A stretch of 64,000 nucleotides of DNA from Alphaproteobacteria bacterium (GTDB lineage Bacteria; Pseudomonadota; Alphaproteobacteria; Bin95). Positions 568 to 30,834 of the stretch are shown in pieces; position 1 is the first letter of the stretch; each line of letters begins with the position of its first letter. The notes beneath the pieces were generated by a model that made no database searches, was not told the origin of the DNA, and saw nothing but the letters and a program-made list of their open reading frames with translations. The position numbers and the translations under genes were made by a program. Location of the stretch: NCBI GenBank assembly GCA_040263875.1, contig JBDQJI010000003.1, forward strand, positions 19,994 through 83,993, given 5' to 3'.

Positions 568-2961
568 GTGTTGGGACATCATACCGCCCCACTCCGCCTT
601 GTGAAACAATTGCTTTCGAACGCTGTTAGAGGCGCATATGGTCAGCCTAAGCCGGAACACACTGCCTGGAGCACCCCCCCCTTGCCCGAAAACATTCGTG
701 ACGCCGCCCTGGCCTATCATCGTCGTGAACCGGCCGGTAAATTGGCCATTCAAGCGACAAAGCCGCTCGGCACCCAGCGTGATCTGGCTCTGGCGTATTC
801 GCCCGGCGTTGCGGCAGCGTGTGAAGCCATCTTCGAGGACCCGGCAGAAGCGGCTGCACTGACAGCGCGCGGTAACTTGGTCGGCGTGATTACCAACGGC
901 ACAGCAGTCCTGGGCCTTGGCGCAATTGGGCCGCTGGCCTCCAAGCCTGTGATGGAAGGTAAGGCTGTTTTATTCAAGAAGTTCGCTGGGATCGACGTGT
1001 TTGATATTGAGGTGGATGCATTGGACCCAGAACGGTTCTGCGATGTGGTGGCCGCCCTAGAACCCACGTTCGGTGGCATCAACCTTGAAGACATAAAAGC
1101 GCCAGAATGCTTTATAATTGAAAAAGAATTACGCAGCCGCATGAACATTCCAGTGCTCCATGACGATCAACATGGCACAGCGATTATCGTGGCGGCAGCA
1201 GTCTTGAACGCCATGCGCCTCGTCAAGAAAGACCCCGCGAATGTGAAGCTCGTCGCCTCTGGCGCTGGGGCCGCATCTATTGCCTGTTTGAACCTGCTCT
1301 GCGCACTTGGTCTGCGCCGTGAGAATATTTGGGTAACAGACATCGCGGGCGTGGTGTTTGAGGGTCGCCAGCAGGAAATGGATGAATGGAAGGCTGCATA
1401 TGCGCAGCCAACCGACAAGCGCTCACTCGCAGAGGTTATCCCAGGCGCGGACATTTTCATGGGGCTCTCCGCAGCGGGCGTTTTAAAGCCGGATATGGTG
1501 CGAGATATGGCACCGGACCCGCTCATTCTCGCGCTCGCCAACCCGAATCCTGAGATCGATCCAGACGAGGCCCGCGCCGTCAGGCCAGACGCGATTATCG
1601 CCACAGGCCGGTCTGACTATCCAAACCAGGTCAATAACGTCCTCTGCTTCCCCTTCATTTTCCGGGGCGCGCTGGATGTCCGTGCGACAGAAATTAATGA
1701 AAGCATGAAGCTTGCTGCCGTTGAGGCTATCGCCGGCCTCGCGATGCAGGAGCAATCCGAAGATGCCCAGCGGGCCTATGGCGGGGAAGCGTTGTCGTTC
1801 GGTCAAAATTACATCATCCCGCGACCGTTCGACCCCAGGCTAATCTTGGAGATCGCGCCAGCAGTCGCAAAGGCCGCCGTTGAGAGCGGCGTCGCCACGC
1901 GGCCAATCACAGACTTCAAGGCCTACCGCCAAAGGCTGGATACCTTCGTATTCCGCTCTGGCTTGATGATGAAGCCAGTGTTTGAGCGCGCACGCGAAGA
2001 CGTTAAGCGCGTTATTTTTGCAGATGGCGAAGATGAACGCGTGCTCCGCGCCGCACAGGCCGCAGTTGATGAAGGCATCGCCCGACCGATCCTGATTGGC
2101 CGCCCGCCTGTGGTTGAAGTACGGATTGAACGGCTGGGTCTCAGGCTGGCTAAGGATGTAGACTATGACATCATCAACCCGGAACAAGATGACCGGTATC
2201 GGCAATATTGGGAAACATATCATAGCCTTATGGGTCGACGCGGTGTCACGCCAGACGCCGCTCGAACCATCATCCGTACCAATACGACAGCGATCGCTGC
2301 TACAGCAGTAAAACGCGGCGACGCGGATGCGATGATCTGCGGACTAGCTGGGGATTATGCGGCTAACCTGCACGAGGTTGAGTTTGTGATTGGCCATGCG
2401 CCTGGTGTGCGCCAACTTGCAGCGCTGAGCGGGCTAATCCTGCCAACCGGCGCCTACTTCATCTGCGATACATATGTTCAATCCGACCCAACGGCAGATG
2501 ATATTGTGCGCATGACTATGCTGGCAGCAGGTGAAATCGGTCGGTTCGGCATGACGCCTAAGGTCGCCCTAGTTTCGCACTCAAACTTCGGCGGTCGTGA
2601 TTCTCTCTCAGCACTCAAAATGCGTGAGGCTTTGGCGAAAATTAAGGACCTAGAGCCTGACTTTGAAGTCGATGGCGAAATGCACGCTGATGCAGCACTT
2701 GATGAAGTAATTCGTCGCCGGGTCTTCCCCAACTCATCGCTCACAGGGTCTGCCAACCTTCTGATTATGCCAACGCTGGATGCAGCAAATATCGCATTCA
2801 ATCTTGTCAAAGCCGCTGGCGAAGGACTGCATGTGGGCCCAATCCTGCTGGGTGCTGCTGAACCGGCACATGTGTTGACGCCAGCTGCGACCGCCCGCAC
2901 GGTGCTCAACATGACAGCAGTCGCCGCCGTTGAAGCGCAAGCCCGCAGCCGCCTCATTTAA
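568..2961 (+). CDS. maeB: NADP-dependent malic enzyme, with a malic enzyme domain plus a C-terminal phosphotransacetylase-like domain
   Basis: The N-terminus [45 protein letters not shown] matches the MaeB family. NAD-binding [19 protein letters not shown] and the long PTA-like C-terminus ([10 protein letters not shown]...[15 protein letters not shown]) all fit. The true start is probably downstream of 568, with GTG/TTG candidates near 601 and 685, because the divergent gene starts at 548. Confidence 0.9.
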
Positions 2962-2988
2962 TATCGTTTCGTTCGGAGAGATCACCCC

Positions 2989-4464
2989 ATGGCCAAAGCC
3001 AACCTTACAGACCTCACTGCCAAAGAAGCGCGTCAGCGCATTGGCAGTAAGGAAATCTCACCCGTTGAATTGCTTGAAGCCTGCGTTGAGCGGATCGAAG
3101 CGGTCGACCCTGCCGTCAACGCCATATGCGAACGGGATTTTGATCGGGCACGTGTTCAAGCCGTTGAAGCAGAACGCACCGTGTTACGCGGCGATGATCT
3201 ACCAACACTCCATGGCCTCCCGGTCGCCGTGAAGGACCTGGACGAGACGGATGGCCTACGCACCACCTACGGCTCGCCACAGTTCAAAGATTTCGTGCCA
3301 GACCATGACTCGGTCATGGTTGGCCGGGTGAAGAACGCGGGCGGCATTGTATTCTGCAAAAGCAACACGCCGGAATTTGGTGCTGGAGCCAATACACGGA
3401 ACCCAGTTTGGGGTGCCACGGGCAATCCGTTCAATCCGGACCTAAATGCTGGCGGTTCTTCCGGCGGCTCCGCTGCAGCATTGGCCTGCGGTATGACGCC
3501 GTTGGCAACAGGGTCTGACATGGGCGGAAGCCTGCGTATTCCTGCTGCTTATTGCGGTGTTTCAGGCTTTAGGCCAACGCCCGGTCTCGTGCCGACCATG
3601 AAACGCAACCTCGGCTGGTCGCCGCTTAGCGTCTCAGGCCCTATGGGCCGAAACATCGAAGATATCTGCATGCTTCTGGCAGAACAAGCCGCCGATGATC
3701 CGCGCGACCCTCTTGCAACAGCCGTTGATCCGATGATGCTGCAGTCTCCGCAACCGCTGGATCTTGGCGGGCTGCGCGTCGCGTGGACCACAGATTTTGG
3801 CTTCGCAAAGATCGATAGCGCCTATGCCGAAACGTTCAAAAAGAAGGTCGCCACCATCAAGGGCTATTTCAACGAATGCAGCGAGGCAGCGCCAGATTTA
3901 GGCGATGCGGACGGCATATTCGGCGTTCTCCGCGCGCTCAGCTTTGTCGCGAGCCACAAAGAAACCTATGAGCGGGACAAGAGCCTGCTCGGGCCAAACG
4001 TGCTCGCCAACTATGAGCAAGGTGCCGCAATGAGCCTGGCCGATGTCGCGAAGGCCGATGTAGAGCACACCAACCTGTATCGCCGGACGGAAAATTTCTT
4101 CCAAGAATTCGACCTGCTGATCGGCCCGACCGTGCCAATCTCACCATTCCCCTGGTCAACTTGGTACTTAGAGGAAATGAACGGTGAGCCACTGGAGACC
4201 TACTATTCCTGGCTGGCACCTACCTACGGCATTACCTTAACGACCTGCCCCGCGGCGACTATTCCTTGCGGGCTGGACGAAAAGGGCATGCCATTTGGGC
4301 TTCAGATCGTCGGCGCGGCGAAAGACGATGCGTTCGTGCTAGGTGCCGCCCATGCACTGGAGCAAGCCTTCGCGCGTACAACTGACCTTCAGCGCCCAGC
4401 GCCAGACATCGCCAAGCTGGCGAGCGGTCCGACACCGTCGCTACGGTCCATAATTGAAGTTTAG
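2989..4464 (+). CDS. Amidase (amidase-signature family, GatA-like)
   Basis: Carries the amidase-signature block GGSSGGSAAALACGMTPLATGSDMGGSLRIPAAYCG and the catalytic K (VAVKD) and S. It is 491 aa. A GGAG-type ribosome-binding site precedes the ATG. Confidence 0.85.
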   Translation: MAKANLTDLTAKEARQRIGSKEISPVELLEACVERIEAVDPAVNAICERDFDRARVQAVEAERTVLRGDDLPTLHGLPVAVKDLDETDGLRTTYGSPQFKDFVPDHDSVMVGRVKNAGGIVFCKSNTPEFGAGANTRNPVWGATGNPFNPDLNAGGSSGGSAAALACGMTPLATGSDMGGSLRIPAAYCGVSGFRPTPGLVPTMKRNLGWSPLSVSGPMGRNIEDICMLLAEQAADDPRDPLATAVDPMMLQSPQPLDLGGLRVAWTTDFGFAKIDSAYAETFKKKVATIKGYFNECSEAAPDLGDADGIFGVLRALSFVASHKETYERDKSLLGPNVLANYEQGAAMSLADVAKADVEHTNLYRRTENFFQEFDLLIGPTVPISPFPWSTWYLEEMNGEPLETYYSWLAPTYGITLTTCPAATIPCGLDEKGMPFGLQIVGAAKDDAFVLGAAHALEQAFARTTDLQRPAPDIAKLASGPTPSLRSIIEV

Positions 4465-4717
4465 CCAATCAAGAGGCGGCTGGTTTCTTCAATGCCGAAC
4501 GCCATATAGCCAGCGATCAGGCCGAAATACACAACTGCGATGGCGGAGAGGCTTGAGATGCTGATGTCGCGACGCATGATCATGATATCCTTGTTTCTTT
4601 GGCCTGGGAAAGATTTCCCGAAGCCGATGACACAGAAATAGATTGCGCCGCCTCACATTAGAATAGACGTTTTTGACTACATTCTTTGCGCAAAACGCAT
4701 AGCTGAAGGAAAACCCA

Positions 4718-5272
4718 ATGGCCCGCATCCCATACCCTGACCTAGACACCTTGGATCCGGAGGTTGGCGCCTTCATGCGGCGGATTGATCCGATGGTAAA
4801 TGTCTTCCACATGATGGCGCATGCCGAGACCGCCGTTCGCCCATTCATGCGGCTTGGAAACGCCCTTTTGTTCAAAGGCGTACTTGACCCTGTTCTGCGA
4901 GAGATCGTGATCCTGCGGGTTGGGCATGTCACCGGATCAACCTACGAAGTGCATCAACACAAGATCGTCGGGCGCGATTGCGGCATGACGGATGCACAGA
5001 TCGAAGCTGTACCCGAAGGTGAAACCTCCGATGCCTTTACAGACCGCGAAAAGCTGGCCATTCGGGTAACGGATGAAGTGCTAGCCAATGTCCGCGTAAA
5101 GGATGAAACCTTTGCAGCGATGGAGGCCGCATTCAGTCATCGCGAGAAGACGGAATTGCTGATGGTGATTGGGTTTTACAACATGATCGCCGGATTCTTA
5201 GAAAACATGCAGATTGATATTGAGCCTGAAGGATTGATTGATAACCCCTTGAAACAGGCAAAGAAAGCATAG
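4718..5272 (+). CDS. Carboxymuconolactone decarboxylase (CMD/AhpD-like) family protein
   Basis: An all-helical 184-aa protein with CMD-family architecture (MARIPYPDLDTLDPEV..., and a repeat of the VGHVTGSTYEVHQH-type helix). An AAGGA ribosome-binding site lies 7 nt upstream. A TTGACT -35-like hexamer and the 10-bp palindrome TTTGCGCAAA sit in the upstream AT-rich region. Confidence 0.7.
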   Translation: MARIPYPDLDTLDPEVGAFMRRIDPMVNVFHMMAHAETAVRPFMRLGNALLFKGVLDPVLREIVILRVGHVTGSTYEVHQHKIVGRDCGMTDAQIEAVPEGETSDAFTDREKLAIRVTDEVLANVRVKDETFAAMEAAFSHREKTELLMVIGFYNMIAGFLENMQIDIEPEGLIDNPLKQAKKA

Positions 5273-5347
5273 AAAGAATTAGCAGGAGCCGAATTGGGCT
5301 TATTCATAGCTTTGCTCAACCCTCGGCTTCGCGTAGCTTGAAAAGCG

Positions 5348-6208
5348 ATGGCAGGGATATGTGAGATGCAGACGCTAAAATTTGCTCCGCCGAGGCTCAT
5401 CCCTTTTTCTGCAACTGCTGAGCATTTTCTCCACAATCGGTTCCATAAGGCCTGCGCTGGACTGATTGCGTCTGAACGACATTTGAACTGGATGCTGGCC
5501 CGAGCAATGCGAACGGCTGAGCCTGAATTTCGCGTGCCTTTGCCCTATGCCGTATCGGCTTTCGGGCCAAAACTTGACTTCACCGTCCAAGCGAATTCGA
5601 TCAACAAAATTCTTCGGGGATGGGTCCAAGGCACCGGCAAAATTGTGCGTGTAGATAATTGGTTCGTCGGTGCCCATGATTGGAGCAAGGTTCTGATCAA
5701 CACGGAAGATGATTCAATCGTCCAAGAAGCGCGAATGCTGATTGACGCAAATTTTCGCTTCGCCGAAATTGAAAGTTACGCAAATTACAGACAAAGACTT
5801 GAGGCTGGAGACGCGACCTGGCGCAATATCGGACGCCTTGATAGTATTGAAAGAATCGAAGATTATTTCAATCGCTTCAAAGCGTTATACCACTCGATTG
5901 AAAAACATGGCTTGCTCAGTCCAGATGAATTTTCCGATCAAGCTTCAGGACATGGTGAGGACCCTCCCCAACGCAGAATTGGAATCGCAATTGGTGCGGA
6001 CGGCACGCAATACCGCCTACCTGGCGGACAGCATCGATTTGCTATCGGACTTATATTGGGGTGTCAGATCCCGGTTCAACTTCGGTTGATCCATGTTAAC
6101 TACCTCAAAGCATTGGCAGACCCCGAGCAAACCTTGCCGGCCACGCTGATCTACAACGAAGTGCGGCAGCTTGCGGCGACGGGACGCGTCGGCGGAGGCG
6201 GCGGATAG
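5348..6208 (+). CDS. Hypothetical protein with a C-terminal ParB-N/sulfiredoxin-like motif, in a locally low-GC region
   Basis: IGIAIGADGTQYRLPGGQHRFAIGLILG fits the ParB/Srx-fold consensus (hydrophobic-x-V....DG.Y.L.dGHHR..A). This interval is visibly AT-richer than its flanks. The start codon is uncertain, with several in-frame Met. Confidence 0.45.
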   Translation: MAGICEMQTLKFAPPRLIPFSATAEHFLHNRFHKACAGLIASERHLNWMLARAMRTAEPEFRVPLPYAVSAFGPKLDFTVQANSINKILRGWVQGTGKIVRVDNWFVGAHDWSKVLINTEDDSIVQEARMLIDANFRFAEIESYANYRQRLEAGDATWRNIGRLDSIERIEDYFNRFKALYHSIEKHGLLSPDEFSDQASGHGEDPPQRRIGIAIGADGTQYRLPGGQHRFAIGLILGCQIPVQLRLIHVNYLKALADPEQTLPATLIYNEVRQLAATGRVGGGGG

Positions 6209-8020: not shown

Positions 8021-8563
8021 ATGTTTGATATGGACCGCTTCATCGATGATTGCGCCGCAGCTGTAAAAGCTGACCCCACGCACAAAACAGTCCGCCCAAT
8101 TGTGGAGCGTGTCGTCTCTGATCCGACCGCGTTGTTAAACACTATCGGCGAACCAGTAGCCGCAGGCGTCAACAAGATCTGCCACCGCCCGGACCTCACA
8201 ATTCTGAATTTAGTTTGGGGCAAGCGCATGACGCTGATGCCGCATAACCATAATATGTGGGCTGTGATCGGCATCTACACGGGCCGTGAAGACAACATTT
8301 TCTGGCGACGCTTGGACGAAGGCCCCTGCGGCCTGGAAGCCGCTGGCGCTAAAACGCTTGGTGTCGGCGATGTCGCTCCGCTGGGCGCAGACATCATTCA
8401 CTCCGTCACAAACCCGCTGGATAAGCTGACGGGTGCCATTCACGTTTATGGCGGTGATTTCTTCGCAGAACATCGGTCTGAATGGGAGCCAGAAAACCTG
8501 ACCGAACAGACCTATGATGTTGCGAAGAATATGGCGCTCTTTGAAGAAGCCAATCGTCGCTAA
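8021..8563 (+). CDS. Cupin (double-stranded beta-helix) metalloenzyme, cysteine-dioxygenase-like
   Basis: LNLVWGKRMTLMPHNHNMWAVIGIYTGREDNIFWRR has the layout of the cysteine-dioxygenase-type cupin family (VW.pgq.tpiHdH...w.v.G.l.G.E). A second cupin His lies further on (IHVYGG). It is 180 aa. Confidence 0.6.
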   Translation: MFDMDRFIDDCAAAVKADPTHKTVRPIVERVVSDPTALLNTIGEPVAAGVNKICHRPDLTILNLVWGKRMTLMPHNHNMWAVIGIYTGREDNIFWRRLDEGPCGLEAAGAKTLGVGDVAPLGADIIHSVTNPLDKLTGAIHVYGGDFFAEHRSEWEPENLTEQTYDVAKNMALFEEANRR

Positions 8564-8581: not shown

Positions 8582-9415
8582 ATGCAGGTAGAGGCTATTG
8601 CGGGCGCACTTGGTGCCGAGATCAAAGGCGTTGATCTAAGCAGTGAACTGTCGAACAGCGATGCCGCCGCTGTCCGGGATGCCTTCCTGGATCACAAGGT
8701 TATCTTTTTCCGGGACCAAAAACTAACGCCGAATGATCAAGTCCGTTTTGCCAGCCTTTTCGGCGAACCTGATATTTATCCCTTCATCGAAGGCCTACCT
8801 GATACGCCTGAGGTCATCGAAATTCTGAAAGCTCAAGGCGACGCCAAGAACTTTGGCGGCAGTTGGCATTCAGATACCTCCTACATGGAGCAACCTGCGC
8901 TCGGCACTGTGCTCTATGCGCTGGAAACGCCAAAGGCTGGTGGCGACACACTTTTCGCCAATGCGGCTGCCGCCTATGAAGCGTTATCTGACGGCATGAA
9001 GTCCATGCTTGGCGACCTGAAAGGCGTGAACTGCTCCGAACATGGCTATGCTGGCGGCCGGGCAGCGGCGATGGCGAAGCTGGATGGCATGAAAGAAACC
9101 GACCAAGCGGCGACAGGGTACGAATCCCGTCATCCAATTGTGCGCACACATCCAGAGACGGGCCGGAAATCACTCTACCTCAACCGCTCCCACACGGCCT
9201 CTTTCGATACGATGACGGAAGCTGAAAGCAAGCCGCTGATCGACTTCCTCTGTGACCATATCACCCGACCAGAATTCACCTGCCGCTTTCGCTGGACGCC
9301 CGGTGCAATTGCAGTTTGGGACAACAGAGCGACCCAGCATTTTGCTGTGAACGACTACCCAGGCAAGCGTCGCCGCATGCATCGTGTGACGATTAAGGGC
9401 GACACGCCCCGGTGA
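8582..9415 (+). CDS. TauD/TfdA-family Fe(II)/2-oxoglutarate-dependent dioxygenase, taurine-dioxygenase-like
   Basis: WHSDTSYMEQPALGTVLYALETPKAGGDTLFANAAAAYEALS carries the HxD...H facial triad and the TauD-family context. It sits 18 nt downstream of the cupin gene. Its TGA stop overlaps the GTG start of the next gene (GTGA). Confidence 0.85.
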   Translation: MQVEAIAGALGAEIKGVDLSSELSNSDAAAVRDAFLDHKVIFFRDQKLTPNDQVRFASLFGEPDIYPFIEGLPDTPEVIEILKAQGDAKNFGGSWHSDTSYMEQPALGTVLYALETPKAGGDTLFANAAAAYEALSDGMKSMLGDLKGVNCSEHGYAGGRAAAMAKLDGMKETDQAATGYESRHPIVRTHPETGRKSLYLNRSHTASFDTMTEAESKPLIDFLCDHITRPEFTCRFRWTPGAIAVWDNRATQHFAVNDYPGKRRRMHRVTIKGDTPR

Positions 9416-10212
9416 CGGCTAAACCAAGCCAGCAAGGCGTTGCCTCAACAGACCTCTCAAACCGCTCGCTGATTAGCATCCTCGCTGGCGCTTTCAGTGT
9501 TAGCATTTTCGCGATCATTATTACGGCGAGCCTATCAGGTATATGGGGCTTGCCCGGCGGACCGCTGCTTCAGGCTGCCGCTGCCATTGGCTCGGTTTGC
9601 CTAGTCGGATCGTTTGTCGCTGTGCTGGCAAAGCGGCGCGGGCGGCCGGGGAAAGCCGGATTTAGGTCTCACATCTGGCTCGCCAGCATCGGCACAGGGC
9701 TTGTCTTAGCCCACGGCGCTAGCGGGCTGCTAAAACCGCCAGCCACGCTGTTTGTGCTTCTGCTGCTGCTCATCGGCCTCGGTGTCTGGTCCAGGCTACA
9801 AGGTGCGCGGATGATGGCGCGGACTTTCGGTGAAAAGCGCGCGGGCTTCGAAAAACCGAATCCAGCGGTACGGGCACGGCTCGCCGCCCTCATTGAGCAG
9901 AAGCAGGCATTGCTGGCCAAGCTTGATCCGAGTGCGCATGAGGCTCTCTTCTCACCGCAATTCCGACATTGGTTAAGCGCCCCGATCCTAACACTCAGCT
10001 ATACGAAGCTTGCCGCAGAAGAAAGCCGCATTATCGGTGCTGCCGCCGGCTTACCGCAGATCCAGGCACGCTGGCGGCTTCTACATCGATTGGCAGCGCT
10101 GGCATTCGTTGGCGGGCTGCTGGCGCACATCATCATCGTTATGCTGTTCGCAGGATACGCTGCAGACGGCGGCGATATCTATTGGCTTCACTTCGCAGCA
10201 TGGGATTTTTGA
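9412..10212 (+). CDS. Integral membrane protein with about 5 transmembrane helices and two His-x13-His pairs, predicted to be a dihaem cytochrome b-type membrane anchor
   Basis: Hydrophobic helices contain HIWLASIGTGLVLAH and HRLAALAFVGGLLAH, with His at i and i+14 in two separate helices, as in bis-haem cytochrome b subunits (FdnI/NarI/HyaC-like). It is translationally coupled to tauD upstream and ends 5 nt before the Mo-enzyme gene. Confidence 0.5.
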   Translation: MTAKPSQQGVASTDLSNRSLISILAGAFSVSIFAIIITASLSGIWGLPGGPLLQAAAAIGSVCLVGSFVAVLAKRRGRPGKAGFRSHIWLASIGTGLVLAHGASGLLKPPATLFVLLLLLIGLGVWSRLQGARMMARTFGEKRAGFEKPNPAVRARLAALIEQKQALLAKLDPSAHEALFSPQFRHWLSAPILTLSYTKLAAEESRIIGAAAGLPQIQARWRLLHRLAALAFVGGLLAHIIIVMLFAGYAADGGDIYWLHFAAWDF

Positions 10213-10217
10213 GCGTC

Positions 10218-13142
10218 ATGTCACGCCTAGCCCTGATGATCGATCTGGAACGCTGCATTGGCTGTAAAAGCTGTGAGGCCGCCTGCAAAGCCGAGCATGG
10301 CCTCGGCCCTGGCGAACGGCGAAACCGCGTCGTCTGGCTTGGCGGCGACAATGGCCCAACCTTGGACTTCCTGAAGCTGGCCTGCCAGCACTGCGAGCGT
10401 CCAGCATGCCTCCGCGCCTGCCCGGTTGAACCTAAAGCCATCCGCAAAGACGCAGAAACCGGCATCGTATCGATCATTGAAGAAAGCTGTGTTGGTTGCG
10501 GTGAATGCGTCGCCGCCTGCCCATACGGCGCGATGGGCTATGACGCTGGCGGGCATCACGCGGTCAAATGTGACCTATGTCATGACCGACGGGCAGAGGG
10601 TGCAGCAACAACCGCATGTGCCAGCGTTTGCCCCGGCAAAGCGATTACGTTTGGCGAGCGCGACCCTATGTTGGCAGGCGCCGAAGCTGATGGCCGCACT
10701 GCCATCGACAACGATCCGTATCTTTTGGCACCAGCGACCATTTACCTAGATCGTATTATCCGCGACGCATCCGCCTTTGACGTTTTTGAGCAATCAACGC
10801 CAGCCGTATCTGATGACGGCGAGCCGGACCCTGAAACAGCAACCGCCTTTCCCTTCGGCCTGCCCCGTGAGGAGCGATTGGCCGATAGGATTGAGCCAGG
10901 CGGGTGCAATATCTGCTTCAATGCCTGCACGACCAACTTTCACTTCAAGGATGATAGGCTGGTCAAGGTAACCGGCAATGAATCTGACCCCATGCTGGAA
11001 GGCCGTGTCTGCCCGAAGTCTCAGTTCTCGCTGCAACTCTATAATTCCAAGGACCGGCTGACCCAGCCGCTAAAGCGCGTCGGTGAGCGCGGCGAGAATA
11101 AGTTCGAGCCAATTTCCTGGGAACAGGCGCTGGATGAGATCGCGGAAAAGCTTGGCGCGATCCGGGATGACTTTGGGCCAGAAGCCTTGGCGATATTCTC
11201 AGGTACGCGTACGGGCACTTTGACCAATAAGGGTTATATCCGCCTGTTCCGCCAACTTTGGGGCACGCCGAATTTTGAAACTACGGAGCCCTATTGCTCC
11301 TTCGGCAAGAACATCGCCTACAACATGGTTCAAGGCGCTGGCGGCAGTGGCAATAGCTATACTGAAGGCGACATGGGCTCGGCCGAGCTCTACGTCTATA
11401 TGGGCGACAATCAGGCGGAAACGCGCCCTGTCCACTTCGGCATGATCAATGACTGGCGGCTGATAAACCGCGCTAGATTGATCGCCATTGATCCACGTAT
11501 GACAGTCACAGCCTCCAAGGCGGATTGGCATTTGCCGATCCGGCCCGGCGGCGACATGGCCCTGTCCCTCGCCATCGCACATCACATATTTTCCGAGAAC
11601 CTCCACGACGCAAAGTTTTGCGAAGAATGGGTGCTTGGCTGGGAAGAATGGCGCGATTTCATTTTTGCGAGCGGGTATTCGCCAGAATGGGCAGCCCCGA
11701 TAACCGATCTTCCCGCTGAGGACATCAAGCGGCTGGCGGAAGAAATCGCCCGCGCCGATGGCTGCGTCATCTTCGGAAGCCGGGGCTTGAACCAGCACGT
11801 GAATTCGGTCCAATCCAACCGTGCGATCATGTTTGTAGCGGCCATTACGGGCAATTGGGGTCGACGGGGTGGTGCCTATTTCAACATGTCGGCATCTGTT
11901 CCTGCTGAAGCCAATGCGCCGGAGGGCAGGATCGCGCCGCTGAATAAGCCCCGCGTCCGCACCAGCCCCACGGGTTGGGTCGACGCCATGCGCACCAGCC
12001 AGCCCTACGCCCTAAAGGCACTCATTGCCTGCAACAATCCCATGTCACTCTGGCCCGACCAGACGGAGACGCGGGATGGATTGAACGCACTTGATCTTCT
12101 GGTCCACATCGACATCTTCCCGAATGAAACCAGCGCTTATGCCGACTACGTTCTGCCTGCCGCCACTGGCATCGAGAAAGGCGAGGTTGGCCGCGCCTGC
12201 GAAGATCGCCGCGTCGTGTGGATAGACCGCATGATCGAGCCGCCAGGTGTCGCCAAACCGGATGGATGGATTTGGATCGAGCTTGGAAAACGTTTTGGCT
12301 TCGATGATGTGCTGAAAGAGGAGTGGAAAGACTCAGCGAAGTTCTGGGATGAAGCCATGATTGATCATGTGCAGATGCGCGGCGTCACCCAAAAACGCCT
12401 GCATTCCAGGCCCTATCGCTGGGTCCGTTTCCCTGTCGCGACAGAGGAAGCCGAAGAAATCAATACGCTCTATCTGGAAGGCACGACTGCGCCCGGCAAA
12501 CCAGAAGGCCATCGTTTCCCTTCCCCCAGTGGCAAGCTTGAATTCTTCACGGAGGAAATGGATGCCAAGTTCAGAAGCTATGGCCTATCCGCCCTGCCGG
12601 AATTCTATAGCGAGGGCGAAAGCCTGTTCGATATGGCGCATCTGGAAATGCTGGACCCCGACTGGACTGAAGGCATTAAAAGCCCGTTCTTGAACGGTGC
12701 CGCCTATGCCTCCCGCGCACGTATTGTTGATGCCAGCGAGGCCCAGCCCGCCGCCAATCTCCGCGCCCAAGGCTATGACATGGAACTTGTCACTGGCCGC
12801 GCACCTGCCCCGCACTTCCATTCCTGGACGCATTATTCATGGCAAGCGCAGGAAATGTGGCCGGACTTATACGCGCAGATGCATCCCGCCACCGCCAAAC
12901 GCCTTGGGATTGATGATGGCGACCGCGTTACGGTCGAAACATCCCACGGTAAGGCAGACGCACGCGCCTGGATCACCAATGGCATCCGCGAACGCGCTAT
13001 CTTCATGCCCATCGGCTGGGGCGAACGGCAACCGTTCAACCCCTGGCGGCCAGTTAATGACCTAACCGACAAACATCAACGCTGCCCTATCTCAGAGCAA
13101 ACGAACTTGAAGTCTCTACTCTGCCGGGTAAGCGCGGCCTAG
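10218..13142 (+). CDS. Fusion protein: an N-terminal four-cluster [4Fe-4S] ferredoxin-type subunit (DmsB/FdnH/NarH-like) joined to a molybdopterin oxidoreductase catalytic subunit (MopB, Mo-bisPGD family). No Tat signal.
   Basis: The N-terminus has four Cys clusters: CIGCKSCEAAC, CQHCERPACLRACP, CVGCGECVAACP and CDLCHD...CASVCP. Then comes the MopB N-terminal cluster CNICFNAC...RVCPK and a candidate Mo-ligand Cys (TTEPYCSFGK), with the MopB body continuing to about 975 aa. The start MSRLALMIDLERC has no twin-arginine motif. Confidence 0.8.
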   Translation: MSRLALMIDLERCIGCKSCEAACKAEHGLGPGERRNRVVWLGGDNGPTLDFLKLACQHCERPACLRACPVEPKAIRKDAETGIVSIIEESCVGCGECVAACPYGAMGYDAGGHHAVKCDLCHDRRAEGAATTACASVCPGKAITFGERDPMLAGAEADGRTAIDNDPYLLAPATIYLDRIIRDASAFDVFEQSTPAVSDDGEPDPETATAFPFGLPREERLADRIEPGGCNICFNACTTNFHFKDDRLVKVTGNESDPMLEGRVCPKSQFSLQLYNSKDRLTQPLKRVGERGENKFEPISWEQALDEIAEKLGAIRDDFGPEALAIFSGTRTGTLTNKGYIRLFRQLWGTPNFETTEPYCSFGKNIAYNMVQGAGGSGNSYTEGDMGSAELYVYMGDNQAETRPVHFGMINDWRLINRARLIAIDPRMTVTASKADWHLPIRPGGDMALSLAIAHHIFSENLHDAKFCEEWVLGWEEWRDFIFASGYSPEWAAPITDLPAEDIKRLAEEIARADGCVIFGSRGLNQHVNSVQSNRAIMFVAAITGNWGRRGGAYFNMSASVPAEANAPEGRIAPLNKPRVRTSPTGWVDAMRTSQPYALKALIACNNPMSLWPDQTETRDGLNALDLLVHIDIFPNETSAYADYVLPAATGIEKGEVGRACEDRRVVWIDRMIEPPGVAKPDGWIWIELGKRFGFDDVLKEEWKDSAKFWDEAMIDHVQMRGVTQKRLHSRPYRWVRFPVATEEAEEINTLYLEGTTAPGKPEGHRFPSPSGKLEFFTEEMDAKFRSYGLSALPEFYSEGESLFDMAHLEMLDPDWTEGIKSPFLNGAAYASRARIVDASEAQPAANLRAQGYDMELVTGRAPAPHFHSWTHYSWQAQEMWPDLYAQMHPATAKRLGIDDGDRVTVETSHGKADARAWITNGIRERAIFMPIGWGERQPFNPWRPVNDLTDKHQRCPISEQTNLKSLLCRVSAA

Positions 13143-27959: not shown

Positions 27960-29513
27960 ATGACCAAAGCCGCATTTGATGCCGTTACCCTAGAAATCCT
28001 TTGGCGCCGCATGATTTCTGCCGCAGATGAAGCTGCAAAAACACTGCAGCGCGTCTCGTTCTCTACGTTAGTGAATGAAAGCAATGATTTTGCCTGTGTG
28101 CTGACAGACGCAACCGGCGCATCGCTCGTCCAGAACACCGAAAGCATCCCCTCATTTAATGGCTGCTTACCGGTAACCGTGAAGCACTTTCTGGATGTCA
28201 TTGGTGTTAACGATATGCGCCCCGGCGATTTTCTCGTTTGCAATGATCCGTGGGTGGGTACAGGGCATCTGAATGACATCACCCTTGCAAAACCTGTTTT
28301 CCGGGATGGCAAGATCGTCGCTTTTTGTGCCTCCACCGCCCATGCGCCTGATATTGGCGGCAAGGTCCGATCCGTCGTTGCCCGGGAAGTGTTTGAGGAA
28401 GGCTTCGCCATCCCGGCCATGCACTTAATCCGGGATGGTGAGCCAGACGCAACGTTCTTCAAGCTCATGCGCGCAGCCGTTCGCACACCAGACCAAACAG
28501 AAGGCGATATTTGGGCGCAAGTCACCGCACTTGATCTGATGGAGCAACGCCTAACTGCGCTGATGGACGAGTACGCGCTGACCTCCCTTGAGGACTTCGC
28601 CGCCGAAATCCACGGCCGTTGCGAAACCGCCATGCGCGCCGCGTTCAAAGAAGCACCCGATGGCCGTTATGAGTTTGGTTTCGAGACGGATGGCATGGAT
28701 GCACCGTTCCACTACCAGGTCGCGGTAACGATTACCGGTGACCGTGTGCATGTGGATTGGACTGGAACCAGTGATCAGGTAGGCCGGGCGATCAACTGCC
28801 CCCTCGTCTACACGTTTGCCATGACATCCTATGCGTTGAAATGTGCATTCCTGCCGAACCTGCCTAACAATGAAGGCGTATTCCGCTGCATTGAAGTGAC
28901 GGCTGAGCCCGGCACGATTGTGAACCCCACACGACCGGTGGCTGTTGGCGGTCGCATGGCAACGGGTCATTACCTGCCTGTCGCCATCTTCGGGGCCTTG
29001 GCGCAAGCACTGCCCGATAAAGTGATGGCTGCCTCTGGCTCTCCGCTTTGGTCAATTATCCAGACCGGTGTTACGGACGACGGCAAACCCTACGCCAACA
29101 CGCTGTTCTTCAATGGTGGATCAGGTGCAACGGCTGAAACGGACGGCCAGAGTTGCTATTCCTGGCCGTCCAATATCTCCAATGTCCCGGTCGAGCTAAC
29201 AGAACGGAACACGCCGTTTTTTGTAGGCCGTAAGCAACTTCGTGATGGATCAGGCGGTGCTGGAGCGCAAACGGGTGGCCTAGGCCAGGAGATTGAACTT
29301 GAGCATGCCGGCACAGGCGATCTCGGCATCATCTTCATGGCAGAACGCCTACGTCACCCGGCCCATGGCCTTATGGGCGGCAAGGAAGGTGCATGCGGCG
29401 CTGTATTGATCGACGGCGAACCGGCCAATGCCCGCGCGGATCATGTTCTTAAGCCCGGCCAGACAATCACTCTGAAGCTGCCAGGTGGCGGCGGATATGG
29501 GGCCATTAAGTAA
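27960..29513 (+). CDS. hyuB: Hydantoinase B / oxoprolinase B subunit (HyuB)
   Basis: Hydantoinase_B family pattern (DPVTLEILWRRMISAADEAAKTLQRVSFS...NDPWVGTGHLNDIT...). The start MTKAAFDAV at 27960 is 14 nt after the hyuA stop. Confidence 0.85.
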   Translation: MTKAAFDAVTLEILWRRMISAADEAAKTLQRVSFSTLVNESNDFACVLTDATGASLVQNTESIPSFNGCLPVTVKHFLDVIGVNDMRPGDFLVCNDPWVGTGHLNDITLAKPVFRDGKIVAFCASTAHAPDIGGKVRSVVAREVFEEGFAIPAMHLIRDGEPDATFFKLMRAAVRTPDQTEGDIWAQVTALDLMEQRLTALMDEYALTSLEDFAAEIHGRCETAMRAAFKEAPDGRYEFGFETDGMDAPFHYQVAVTITGDRVHVDWTGTSDQVGRAINCPLVYTFAMTSYALKCAFLPNLPNNEGVFRCIEVTAEPGTIVNPTRPVAVGGRMATGHYLPVAIFGALAQALPDKVMAASGSPLWSIIQTGVTDDGKPYANTLFFNGGSGATAETDGQSCYSWPSNISNVPVELTERNTPFFVGRKQLRDGSGGAGAQTGGLGQEIELEHAGTGDLGIIFMAERLRHPAHGLMGGKEGACGAVLIDGEPANARADHVLKPGQTITLKLPGGGGYGAIK

Positions 29514-30834
29514 GCCCTAAATTCTCCCGGAGCGTTGGGCCTGCATAGTCTTTATGGTAGAGTTCCCGCCGTTGAAGCTCGGGGACAACGTGGCTGACGA
29601 AATCCTCATAGGCACCCGGCATATGCGTTGCGGCCAGCACGAATCCGTCGCAGCCTTTGCCTGTGAACCATTCTTCCATGCCGTCTGCCACCTGCTTAGC
29701 CGTGCCAACAAACTGCGCCATTTCCTTCAAGGTTCCACGGGCGGAATGTTCAACGAAATCACGGACCGTCGGGTTGGCTTTGCCTGACAGCCGGATCACG
29801 CGATCCCGGATCGCCTGAAGGCCGCTGATCGCCTCTAGCTCATCTGACGAAAACGCATCGTCCATGTCCTTGGCGGCGAAGTCATAGTTGAGCGCTTCAG
29901 ACAACAAGGCCAGCGTATCAATCGGTTGGTGTAGCTCAGCAATCATGCCGGCCTTGTCTTCAGCCTCTGCCTGGCTTTCCCCAACAATGGCATATGCAGC
30001 TGGCGTGAGGCGGAAGCTATTTGGGTCCCTGCCTGTTTTCTCGGCCAGTGCCTGGGTCTCACCATACACCCGCTGCGCATATTCCAGGTTGGGGAAGATT
30101 GCGAAAATCAGTTCTGCCCACTTAACAGCAAACTGCTGACCACGCCCGCTTTGGCCGGCTTGGATGATGACCGGGCGGCCTTGCGGCGTTGGCGGCACAG
30201 TGAAAGGCCCACGGCTCTTGAAATAAGCGCCCTCATGATTGAGCGCTTTTACCTTCGAGGGATCTGCGAAAATACCGTTGGCCTTGTCGAGAACAATTGC
30301 GTCTTCCGCCCATGTATCCCAATGGCCGTGGACGACCTCCAAAAACTCTTCCGCTCGCTCATAGCGCTCTGCATGGCCAAGCAGCGCATCTTGGCCAAAG
30401 TTCGCGGCCTCAGAATCATTCAGTGAGGTGACGACATTCCATGCAGCCCGGCCGTTGGTCATGTGGTCCAGGGTTGAGAACTGTCGGGCTGCGTGAAATG
30501 GCTCGTAATACGTTGTGGACATAGTGGCACCCAGGCCAATGCGGGATGTAACCGCCCCCATGGTTGCCAGGATCGGGATTGGATCCAGTTTCACAACACG
30601 CACGCCGTTACGAATAGACTCGTCCGCACTATCGCCATACCGGTCTGGCATAGCCAAGCGATCATCAAAGAACGCCATATGGAACTTACCGGCCTCAAGC
30701 GTCTTTGCAATCCGCTGATAATACTCAGGCCTCAGAAAGTCTGTCGCAGACTCTGGGTGGCGCCAGGACGCTGGATAGTTCGAGCAATTTTGAGCTTGCA
30801 GAAATCCCACAAGCGCCATCTGGCGTTTGGCCAT
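29506..30834 (-). CDS. LLM-class flavin-dependent monooxygenase (NtaA/SnaA/DszA/SsuD-like)
   Basis: 442 aa with a TIM-barrel luciferase-like pattern (MALVGFLQAQNCSNYPASWRHPES...HMAFFDDRLAMP...). Its 3' end overlaps the hyuB 3' end by 8 nt (convergent). Confidence 0.8.
   Translation of the reverse strand: MAKRQMALVGFLQAQNCSNYPASWRHPESATDFLRPEYYQRIAKTLEAGKFHMAFFDDRLAMPDRYGDSADESIRNGVRVVKLDPIPILATMGAVTSRIGLGATMSTTYYEPFHAARQFSTLDHMTNGRAAWNVVTSLNDSEAANFGQDALLGHAERYERAEEFLEVVHGHWDTWAEDAIVLDKANGIFADPSKVKALNHEGAYFKSRGPFTVPPTPQGRPVIIQAGQSGRGQQFAVKWAELIFAIFPNLEYAQRVYGETQALAEKTGRDPNSFRLTPAAYAIVGESQAEAEDKAGMIAELHQPIDTLALLSEALNYDFAAKDMDDAFSSDELEAISGLQAIRDRVIRLSGKANPTVRDFVEHSARGTLKEMAQFVGTAKQVADGMEEWFTGKGCDGFVLAATHMPGAYEDFVSHVVPELQRRELYHKDYAGPTLRENLGLT

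Follow-up and report, generated by a model that had tools for sequence, protein, structure and literature searches.

The 64,000-nt stretch of DNA analysed here (the window; Alphaproteobacteria bacterium, assembly GCA_040263875.1, contig JBDQJI010000003.1, positions 19,994–83,993 of the forward strand) encodes a 974-aa protein in which a four-[4Fe-4S] electron-transfer subunit (beta) of PsrB/DmsB type is joined to the N-terminus of a catalytic subunit (alpha) of the MopB superfamily. In the usual complex iron-sulfur molybdoenzyme, alpha and beta are separate and alpha is exported by the twin-arginine translocation (Tat) system; here, a single polypeptide carries beta and then alpha, and no export signal was found in it. 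Together with the 266-aa membrane protein (gamma) encoded directly upstream, the fusion protein probably forms a two-polypeptide version of the three-module enzyme, with its catalytic part facing the cytoplasm and with a new di-heme anchor. The two genes and the parts of the fusion gene, in window coordinates, are as follows.

9412–10212, + strand: 266-aa membrane subunit (gamma), candidate di-heme cytochrome b anchor; five predicted transmembrane (TM) helices, N-terminus in, C-terminus out, with a cytoplasmic helical insert of ~90 aa between TM4 and TM5
10218–13142, + strand: beta-alpha fusion gene, stop codon included (974-aa product)
10218–10715, + strand: beta module (residues 1–166), a DmsB/PsrB-type four-cluster ferredoxin
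10716–10883, + strand: linker (residues 167–222), ~55 aa, weakly conserved, with an FPF/FPY motif
10884–11045, + strand: FS0 [4Fe-4S] domain of the MopB module (C230, C233, C237 and C265)
11055–12293, + strand: molybdopterin-binding core (residues 280–692), including the invariant R522
11295–11297, + strand: codon of Cys360, the predicted Mo (or W) ligand
12786–13115, + strand: C-terminal molybdopterin dinucleotide-binding domain (residues 857–966)

The fusion gene is a single in-frame open reading frame (ORF) from the ATG at 10218. A longer start, TTG 9969, was rejected as spurious, since it runs out of frame over the upstream gene and homologues do not use it. The N-terminal consensus of the fusion homologues reads MSRLALMIDLERC (alignment of 44 homologues, which also serves for the cysteines below). 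Hidden Markov model searches bore out the domain make-up claimed in an earlier, sequence-only reading of the window; Pfam matches on the 974-aa protein were Fer4_11 and other Fer4 models (residues 3–166), Molybdop_Fe4S4 (230–276), Molybdopterin (280–692) and Molydop_binding (857–966). In the N-terminal module, Fer4_11 scored 76.6 bits, above its cut-off, and the four Cys groups of a four-cluster protein are present (C13/16/19/23, C56/59/64/68, C91/94/97/101 and C118/121/134/138), with all 16 cysteines invariant. This module also matched TIGR02951 (DmsB, E value 3e-28), PsrB (PDB 2vpw_B, E value 6e-22) and the NCBIfam DmsB, NrfC, TtrB, HybA and formate dehydrogenase (FDH) beta models, the NCBIfam matches lying below the equivalog cut-offs.

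The remainder of the protein belongs to the MopB superfamily (PF00384: 153 bits, cut-off 24, E value 1e-44; PF01568: 86 bits, cut-off 26.8, E value 2e-24). Its FS0 motif (C230-x2-C233-x3-C237...C265) and C360 of EPYCSFGK are invariant, and in phmmer alignments with PsrA of Thermus thermophilus (2vpw_A), C360 lies opposite the Mo ligand Cys173 and R522 opposite the active-site Arg332. C360 also aligns with the Cys ligand of the Shewanella oneidensis and Bacillus subtilis FDHs. From these intact domains and ligands, the protein is predicted to carry a Mo- or W-bis(molybdopterin guanine dinucleotide) cofactor (Mo/W-bisPGD). An AlphaFold2 model of the whole fusion protein (predicted local distance difference test (pLDDT) 83.5, predicted template modelling score 0.88) is confident over the MopB part and less so over the low-pLDDT linker and the ferredoxin part, which was modelled without clusters.

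The first cluster motif begins at residue 13 with no twin-arginine motif before it (the sole RR, at residues 34–35, lies within the ferredoxin fold), so there is no room for an export signal, and the cytoplasmic location proposed in the sequence-only reading stands. That reading had also set this N-terminus apart from NuoG-like extensions, and Pfam and NCBIfam agree with it: the module is of Fer4_11/DmsB type and no 2Fe-2S domain (Fer2/Fer2_4) was matched by Pfam in the 974-aa protein, so the N-terminus is not of the NuoG/FdsA type. A NuoG/FdsA-like architecture is ruled out on these grounds; in a contrast protein (P0243), Fer2_4 was detected. FdsA (Rhodobacter), FdhA (Methylorubrum) and ForC/YjgC (B. 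subtilis) do resemble the window protein in length (~950–1000 aa), in carrying FeS domains ahead of a cytoplasmic MopB and in their MopB parts, which match; however, their extension is NuoG-like and begins with 2Fe-2S, whereas that of the window protein is a complete DmsB/PsrB-type four-cluster protein. In Foldseek searches, the long NuoG-type FDH chains superposed over the MopB part alone (query-normalised TM-score ~0.6), and no solved chain reproduced the beta-alpha fusion.

The fused family is widespread in marine and soil bacteria. The best 120 matches taken from 5.8 billion protein clusters were, without exception, 968–1028 aa long and at least 64 % identical to the query, with 99–100 % query coverage and identical Pfam domains. 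A scan of one genome per species found a fusion relative in 276 species genomes; neighbourhoods were studied in the loci of the best 80 of these, which come nearly all from metagenome-assembled genomes of Alphaproteobacteria (SAR116, Thalassobaculaceae, Rhodospirillales, Hyphomicrobiaceae and Methyloligellaceae), Burkholderiales and other Betaproteobacteria, and Nitrospinota. Three loci from uncultured Alphaproteobacteria (L001–L003) share 97–98 % identity and full synteny with the window. The sole cultured carrier found was Pseudohalocynthiibacter aestuariivivens RR4-35, whose plasmid pRR4-35_5 encodes the protein as one annotated 975-aa coding sequence (53 % identity).

These data bear directly on the possibility, raised in the sequence-only reading, that a frameshift conceals two genes. 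The nearest unfused relative has its beta and alpha genes just 26 nt apart, a layout that a sequencing or assembly error in the window could have joined; yet the same ORF is uninterrupted throughout the 120 best protein clusters and in 276 independent genomes, and is a single coding sequence on the finished plasmid of a pure culture, so that an artefact has next to no probability. The fusion of a DmsB/FdnH-type four-cluster protein with a MopB subunit bearing FS0 and a Cys ligand is therefore genuine. The further claim that it is unusual holds only in part. It is so by comparison with characterised enzymes: to our knowledge, no characterised member combines a beta-alpha fusion, a cytoplasmic Psr/Fdh/Nap-type module and an anchor outside the known families, and no description of the fused family was found in the literature searched. 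It is not so among genomes, where the fused form is a large conserved family and another, unrelated clade of fusions exists as well. The dual domain content is already recorded by automated annotation, and fused redox modules are common (e.g. the FdsA-type FDHs and ActB of alternative complex III).

The class of the catalytic module was assessed against both curated families and solved structures. All 27 NCBIfam matches (Fdh-alpha, PhsA, DmsA, NasC, NapA and others) fell far below their curated cut-offs, which rules out membership in any named MopB equivalog family. Foldseek matched the MopB part to monomeric Nap, FdhH, PsrA and acetylene hydratase at a target-normalised TM-score of ~0.8. Among solved structures, the best sequence match was PsrA of T. 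thermophilus (PDB 2vpw, E value 4e-65), and the likeness to PsrABC/PhsABC extends from the paired residues Cys173/C360 and Arg332/R522 to the match between PsrB and the beta module and to a shared plan of Mo, FS0, four clusters and a membrane subunit. The Psr and Phs enzymes, however, are Tat-exported and face the periplasm, with separate alpha and beta subunits and, in PsrC, a heme-less NrfD-type anchor, whereas the window enzyme is cytoplasmic and beta-alpha fused, and its anchor is of another family.

Among the NCBIfam models, Fdh-alpha (TIGR01591) gives the module its highest score, 322 bits, and FDHs are among the best sequence and fold matches, which would suit a membrane-bound, cytoplasm-facing formate:quinone oxidoreductase, i.e. 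a non-canonical FDH. Yet 322 bits is less than half of the 666-bit cut-off, and PhsA (NF012032) equals it at 313 bits, itself well short of the 694 bits set for a thiosulfate/polysulfide reductase. The ligand pair here is Cys360-Ser361, as against Sec-His in FdhH and Cys-His in the S. oneidensis FDH. The missing His argues against an FDH without excluding one absolutely, because the non-canonical B. subtilis ForC likewise lacks it (Cys-Gln). Formate-related genes do not recur in the neighbourhoods, where the recurrent genes are TauD-family and thiol-dioxygenase-like. We consider an FDH improbable.

A still less probable reading, to which we attach very little weight, is that the MopB module serves as a scaffold, without a cofactor or without catalysis, as in QrcB or in ActB of alternative complex III, and that the complex merely relays electrons. 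ActB does offer a precedent for a MopB-like and four-cluster fusion, and QrcB is among the NCBIfam matches, but at 146 bits it falls far under its 440-bit cut-off, and all through the family FS0, the Cys ligand, R522 and the two pterin-binding Pfam domains are kept intact and invariant.

The second polypeptide of the proposed complex is the 266-aa membrane protein. The adjoining membrane protein noted in the sequence-only reading is a constant companion of the fusion: a homologue is encoded directly upstream in 78/80 loci, the remaining two having no upstream DNA. In a plasmid collection, an anchor homologue was found only beside the Pseudohalocynthiibacter fusion gene, where it is annotated as a hypothetical protein. 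Two alphaproteobacterial loci (L010 and L041) carry a gene of ~175 aa between anchor and fusion that by eye resembles methylated-DNA-protein-cysteine methyltransferase.

Five His residues (H87, H101, H186, H225 and H239) are invariant in 26 anchor homologues. H87 and H101 are positioned on TM3 and H225 and H239 on TM5, each pair spaced as H-x13-H, which is the His placement expected of a di-heme protein; two stacked b hemes held between two helices are the pattern of cytochrome b and NOX-type domains. An AlphaFold model of the anchor (pLDDT 78.6) has helices at residues 17–40, 51–75, 81–103, 111–140 and 216–250, and the insert spans residues 130–215. Lys and Arg are plentiful in the loop at 74–80 and number 13 in residues 129–221, with none in the loop at 41–50 or in the acidic C-terminus; a topology with the N-terminus in, the C-terminus out and the insert in the cytoplasm is supported by the sequence. 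Given this topology, H87 and H225 would sit close to the cytoplasmic face of the membrane, and H101 and H239 close to the periplasmic face.

No Pfam or NCBIfam family matched the anchor above threshold, the known anchor types (NrfD/PsrC, DmsC, NarI and FdnI/PhsC) included. A permissive scan of 26 members (E value up to 10) returned sub-threshold matches to DUF4405 (13 members), Ni_hydr_CYTB (3), Ferric_reduct (3) and DUF4079 (2), all of which we take to belong to the Pfam two-heme cytochrome clan. The predicted fold appears nearest to di-heme cytochromes b561, although unrelated helical bundles score alike, making this result supportive and not decisive. The comparison proteins, namely the E. 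coli cytochrome b561 CybB (PDB 5oc0), FdnI, eukaryotic cytochrome b561 and the NOX/ferric-reductase domain, are four-helix di-heme proteins, whereas the window anchor has five TM helices and a conserved cytoplasmic insert of ~90 aa that those proteins lack. We conclude that the 266-aa protein represents a new family of dedicated anchors and is probably a di-heme cytochrome b.

In the complex that we envisage, the 974-aa protein would combine a PsrB/DmsB-type wire with a Psr/Fdh/Nap-like Mo/W-bisPGD subunit that has FS0 and a Cys ligand. The anchor would most likely hold two b hemes, one through H87 and H225 on the cytoplasmic side and one through H101 and H239 on the periplasmic side, and the fusion protein would likely dock on its conserved cytoplasmic helical insert. 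Electrons would pass between a substrate at Mo and the quinone pool or a periplasmic partner by way of FS0, the four beta clusters, the inner heme b and the outer heme b; flow in either direction could be accommodated, that from Mo to the membrane, which the sequence-only reading assumed, being the direction of a dehydrogenase.

The origin of the fusion was traced by searching the MopB part alone (residues 215–974) against 1.8 billion representatives clustered at 50 % identity. The fused family appeared in this search as one full-length representative (P0115), and the next full-length matches were all unfused: P0121 (774 aa, 53 % identity), P0122 (767 aa, 46 %), P0124 (793 aa, 40 %) and P0125 (779 aa, 37 %), beyond which lay a general Psr/Fdh-like background at ~30–35 % identity. 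P0124 and P0125 start with twin-arginine signals, while P0121 and P0122 have none. On the P0121 contig, a separate 196-aa Fer4_11 gene, 47 % identical to the window beta module, ends 26 nt before the start of alpha. P0122 has the order alpha, a 277-aa membrane protein and a 194-aa beta; here, beta is 53 % identical to the window beta module, and the membrane protein shows 30 % identity (E value 2e-10) to the window 266-aa protein and keeps both H-x13-H pairs. The free beta proteins align with fusion residues 1–178 and the free alpha proteins with 201–971, so the linker consists of the C-terminal tail of beta and the N-terminal tail of alpha.

In a neighbour-joining tree of MopB parts, which is rough and carries no support values, the fused clade was monophyletic, with the Pseudohalocynthiibacter protein as its earliest branch and, moving outward, P0121, P0122 and then P0124/P0125. 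The sequence comparisons indicate that the beta-alpha fusion is derived and that its nearest relatives keep separate beta and alpha genes. The simplest history would begin with a periplasmic alpha-beta enzyme that lost export and gained a new membrane subunit, after which read-through of the adjacent beta and alpha genes, in a lineage already without a Tat signal, would have given the fusion. The same domain order occurs in P0256 (L083, 4410–7361), a Fer4_11-MopB fusion of 983 aa; beta-alpha fusions have thus arisen more than once, because P0256 is distant (~31 % identity in the MopB part) and branches elsewhere in the tree. Its gene sits between those for a UbiD-family decarboxylase and an Amidohydro_2 protein, with no membrane partner visible there.

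The gene contexts of two unfused loci are unlike those of the fused family. In L081 (3791–6732), beta is followed by alpha, adjoining CoA-transferase and 2-oxoacid:ferredoxin oxidoreductase genes, without an anchor gene. L082 (2141–5860) has the order alpha, anchor and beta, adjoining a peroxiredoxin, a URO-D-like gene and a cytochrome c.

In the window, the anchor and fusion genes are preceded on the same strand by two further genes, the gaps between the four being 18, −4 and 5 nt.

8021–8563, + strand: 180-aa cupin, first gene of the four-gene cluster
8582–9415, + strand: 277-aa TauD-family Fe(II)/2-oxoglutarate dioxygenase

The stop codon of the TauD-like gene overlaps the GTG start of the anchor gene by 4 nt (GTGA), and a convergent short-chain dehydrogenase/reductase gene follows 4 nt after the fusion stop. 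Promoter and terminator scans of the window gave results at chance level.

The cupin had no Pfam or NCBIfam match. In phmmer searches against the PDB, it proved distantly related to the cysteine, 3-mercaptopropionate and mercaptosuccinate dioxygenases (6xb9, E value 3e-7; also 4wvz and 8vni; range 3e-7 to 4e-5). It keeps the three His iron ligands (HxH...H) and the His-Tyr pair, while the Ser of the triad is replaced by Ala and a Met occupies the position of the Arg of CDO and the Gln of MDO; it may represent a third substrate class of thiol dioxygenase. The TauD-family protein matched Pfam TauD (E value 1e-67) but scored 253 bits against the 313-bit cut-off of the NCBIfam taurine dioxygenase model, too low to be called a taurine dioxygenase. 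Relative to E. coli TauD it carries H70→Y, Y73→I and N95→G, with the Fe ligands, R266 and R270 kept. Non-canonical substrates are probable for both proteins because of their changed substrate residues and, for the TauD-like protein, its sub-cut-off score.

Neighbours were counted in the 74 loci with at least 1 kb of DNA upstream of the anchor gene. A TauD-family gene lies directly upstream of the anchor on the same strand in 29 of them, all alphaproteobacterial, and seven of these 29 genes are divergent paralogues (36–41 % identity). The cupin gene is present in 12 loci, the window included, no more than 1.5 kb upstream of the anchor and in the same orientation. In four SAR116/Thalassobaculaceae loci, a second TauD paralogue follows the fusion gene, with two Amidohydro_2 genes and a Rieske ferredoxin gene after it. 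All-against-all clustering of the ORFs from the 80 loci returned the anchor as universal, TauD and cupin in subsets, and no other conserved partner; several of the ORF 'clusters' were spurious antisense ORFs in GC-rich DNA. Neighbours in the Burkholderiales loci were variable.

We tentatively propose, from gene context, that the substrate may be sulfite or another S(IV) compound close to it, e.g. an organic sulfinate, which would be oxidised to sulfate or sulfonate with transfer of the electrons to the respiratory chain; this assignment is considerably less secure than the architecture of the complex. The co-transcribed TauD-family dioxygenase and cupin would make the sulfite or other S(IV) compound in the cytoplasm for the Mo enzyme. 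The guess stems from the TauD and thiol-dioxygenase-like neighbours and from PsrA being the nearest solved catalytic subunit. TauD proper releases sulfite. The upstream TauD gene in 29/74 loci, divergent paralogues included, favours a sulfur link, as does a 'putative sulfate exporter' gene near the module in the cultured carrier. In Variovorax paradoxus B4, a 'putative molybdopterin oxidoreductase' is reportedly needed for growth on mercaptosuccinate and taurine, which makes it a tentative lead. The sulfinates formed by thiol dioxygenases decay or are processed to sulfite, which needs detoxification, a role for which a putative molybdopterin oxidoreductase has been put forward in Variovorax (PMC5373536).

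A more specific variant, which we hold to be distinctly unlikely, would make the fusion protein a cytoplasmic sulfinate dehydrogenase ('hypotaurine-dehydrogenase-type') that adds O to R-SO2- to give R-SO3- as the middle step of a three-step route, not described before, encoded by the operon. The cupin would convert a thiol to a sulfinate, the Mo fusion enzyme would convert the sulfinate to a sulfonate and pass the electrons through the di-heme anchor to the respiratory chain, and the TauD-like dioxygenase would split the sulfonate into an aldehyde and sulfite; such a route would operate in abundant marine Alphaproteobacteria.

A functional precedent for the proposed sulfite chemistry is SoeABC, which resembles the window system in having a Tat-less, cytoplasm-facing MopB, a four-cluster subunit and an anchor, and which acts on sulfite from organosulfonates (mentioned in PMC5373536). 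Compared by description, SoeABC differs in its three separate subunits and in its NrfD-type heme-less SoeC. By this analogy the fused enzyme would be at most a functional analogue of SoeABC, its anchor not being of the NrfD type.

Several points weigh against sulfite or sulfinate oxidation by this complex. In 45/74 loci (Burkholderiales, Nitrospinota and others), there is no TauD gene beside the module, and sulfite release by the TauD-like protein is unproven because its taurine residues are changed and its score is below cut-off. All database names for the family are generic ('molybdopterin-dependent oxidoreductase' or a double COG label from JGI). A transmembrane di-heme wire combined with a cytoplasm-facing active site is the NarGHI arrangement and is energetically natural for a reductase; such a wire is not needed to oxidise a strong reductant like sulfite, and SoeABC does so with its heme-less anchor.

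These last points are the core of the chief rival, a NarGHI-like respiratory or detoxifying reductase, in which quinol would be oxidised at the periplasmic face and electrons delivered to the cytoplasmic Mo site for reduction of a cytoplasmic oxyanion or S- or N-oxide (e.g. a sulfoxide, an N-oxide or a selenium or arsenic oxyanion), generating proton-motive force. The two systems share cytoplasm-facing modules without Tat signals and a membrane subunit with two b hemes (candidate hemes in the window anchor), and among characterised enzymes this is the geometry of NarGHI. The MopB module is also near the reductases PsrA, PhsA and Nap as well as FDH, and both L078 and the Pseudohalocynthiibacter plasmid have BisC/DMSO-reductase-like MopB genes next to the module. 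The likeness to NarGHI is nevertheless limited: NarG belongs to the type II MopB proteins and uses an Asp ligand, the beta subunit NarH is far larger and the Nar subunits are unfused, whereas the window modules are of the small Psr/Fdh/Nap type and NarI (PF02665) is absent from the anchor's matches. Moreover, the hosts are mainly aerobes (SAR116 and Nitrospinota), the operon partners are O2-dependent dioxygenases, the conserved neighbours suggest no candidate acceptor and the operon has no NarJ/TorD-type chaperone gene. We regard a NarGHI-like reductase as rather unlikely, though ahead of an FDH, and retain oxidation of sulfite or a related S(IV) compound as our tentative assignment.

Further neighbourhood observations concern individual lineages. 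On pRR4-35_5 (L086, NZ_CP049042.1, 1995–16743), genes for an FNR-like 2Fe-2S reductase, LysR, an amidohydrolase, a Rieske ferredoxin and BetB lie near the anchor-fusion pair (locus tags G5B38_RS21590/21595), together with a BisC-like 733-aa MopB and, ~6 kb away, the 'putative sulfate exporter family transporter'. Two of these plasmid genes, those for the amidohydrolase and the Rieske protein, have homologues downstream of the module in the SAR116-type loci L015–L019 and L034. In L078, a BisC/DMSO-reductase-like MopB of 769 aa (2774–5083) is encoded on the same strand directly upstream of the anchor-fusion pair and is 49 % identical to the BisC-like MopB of pRR4-35_5. A lineage-specific synteny is seen in the Nitrospinota-like loci L056, L065, L067, L070, L074–L076 and L079, which have hydantoinase A/B, a class IV aminotransferase, GreA, anchor and fusion in that order and, downstream on the opposite strand, genes for a 153-aa protein, IscU, NifS and CysE.

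No Sox, Soe or sulfonate-pathway genes were found among the other genes of the 64-kb window. At 29506–30834 (− strand), the window encodes a 442-aa luciferase-like (flavin-dependent) monooxygenase, for which no link to the Mo-enzyme operon was established; its Pfam family includes alkanesulfonate monooxygenases. A 286-aa ORF without a Pfam or NCBIfam match (5348–6208, + strand) lies in the lowest-GC stretch of the window (GC content 0.518 over 4001–6000, against ~0.56 elsewhere).

Mo-bisPGD enzymes drive much of the microbial redox cycling of S, N, C, As and Se, and few subunit arrangements have been studied. The structural reading made from the sequence alone is supported, and the fused family adds a further arrangement, in which the wire subunit is fused ahead of a cytoplasm-facing catalytic subunit and paired with an unclassified candidate di-heme anchor. 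Uncultured carriers number in the hundreds of genomes, among them those of soil Burkholderiales and of SAR116, Thalassobaculaceae and Nitrospinota, which are abundant in the ocean, and the unfused, Tat-less and Tat-bearing relatives provide a natural series for following changes of sidedness and fusion. The cultured carrier P. aestuariivivens RR4-35 makes experiments feasible. If the enzyme oxidises sulfite or a sulfinate, it would fill a gap in marine organosulfur turnover and represent a second type of sulfite dehydrogenase working in the cytoplasm; a Nar-like reductase would instead suggest that the bacteria carrying it use an electron acceptor that has gone unrecognised.

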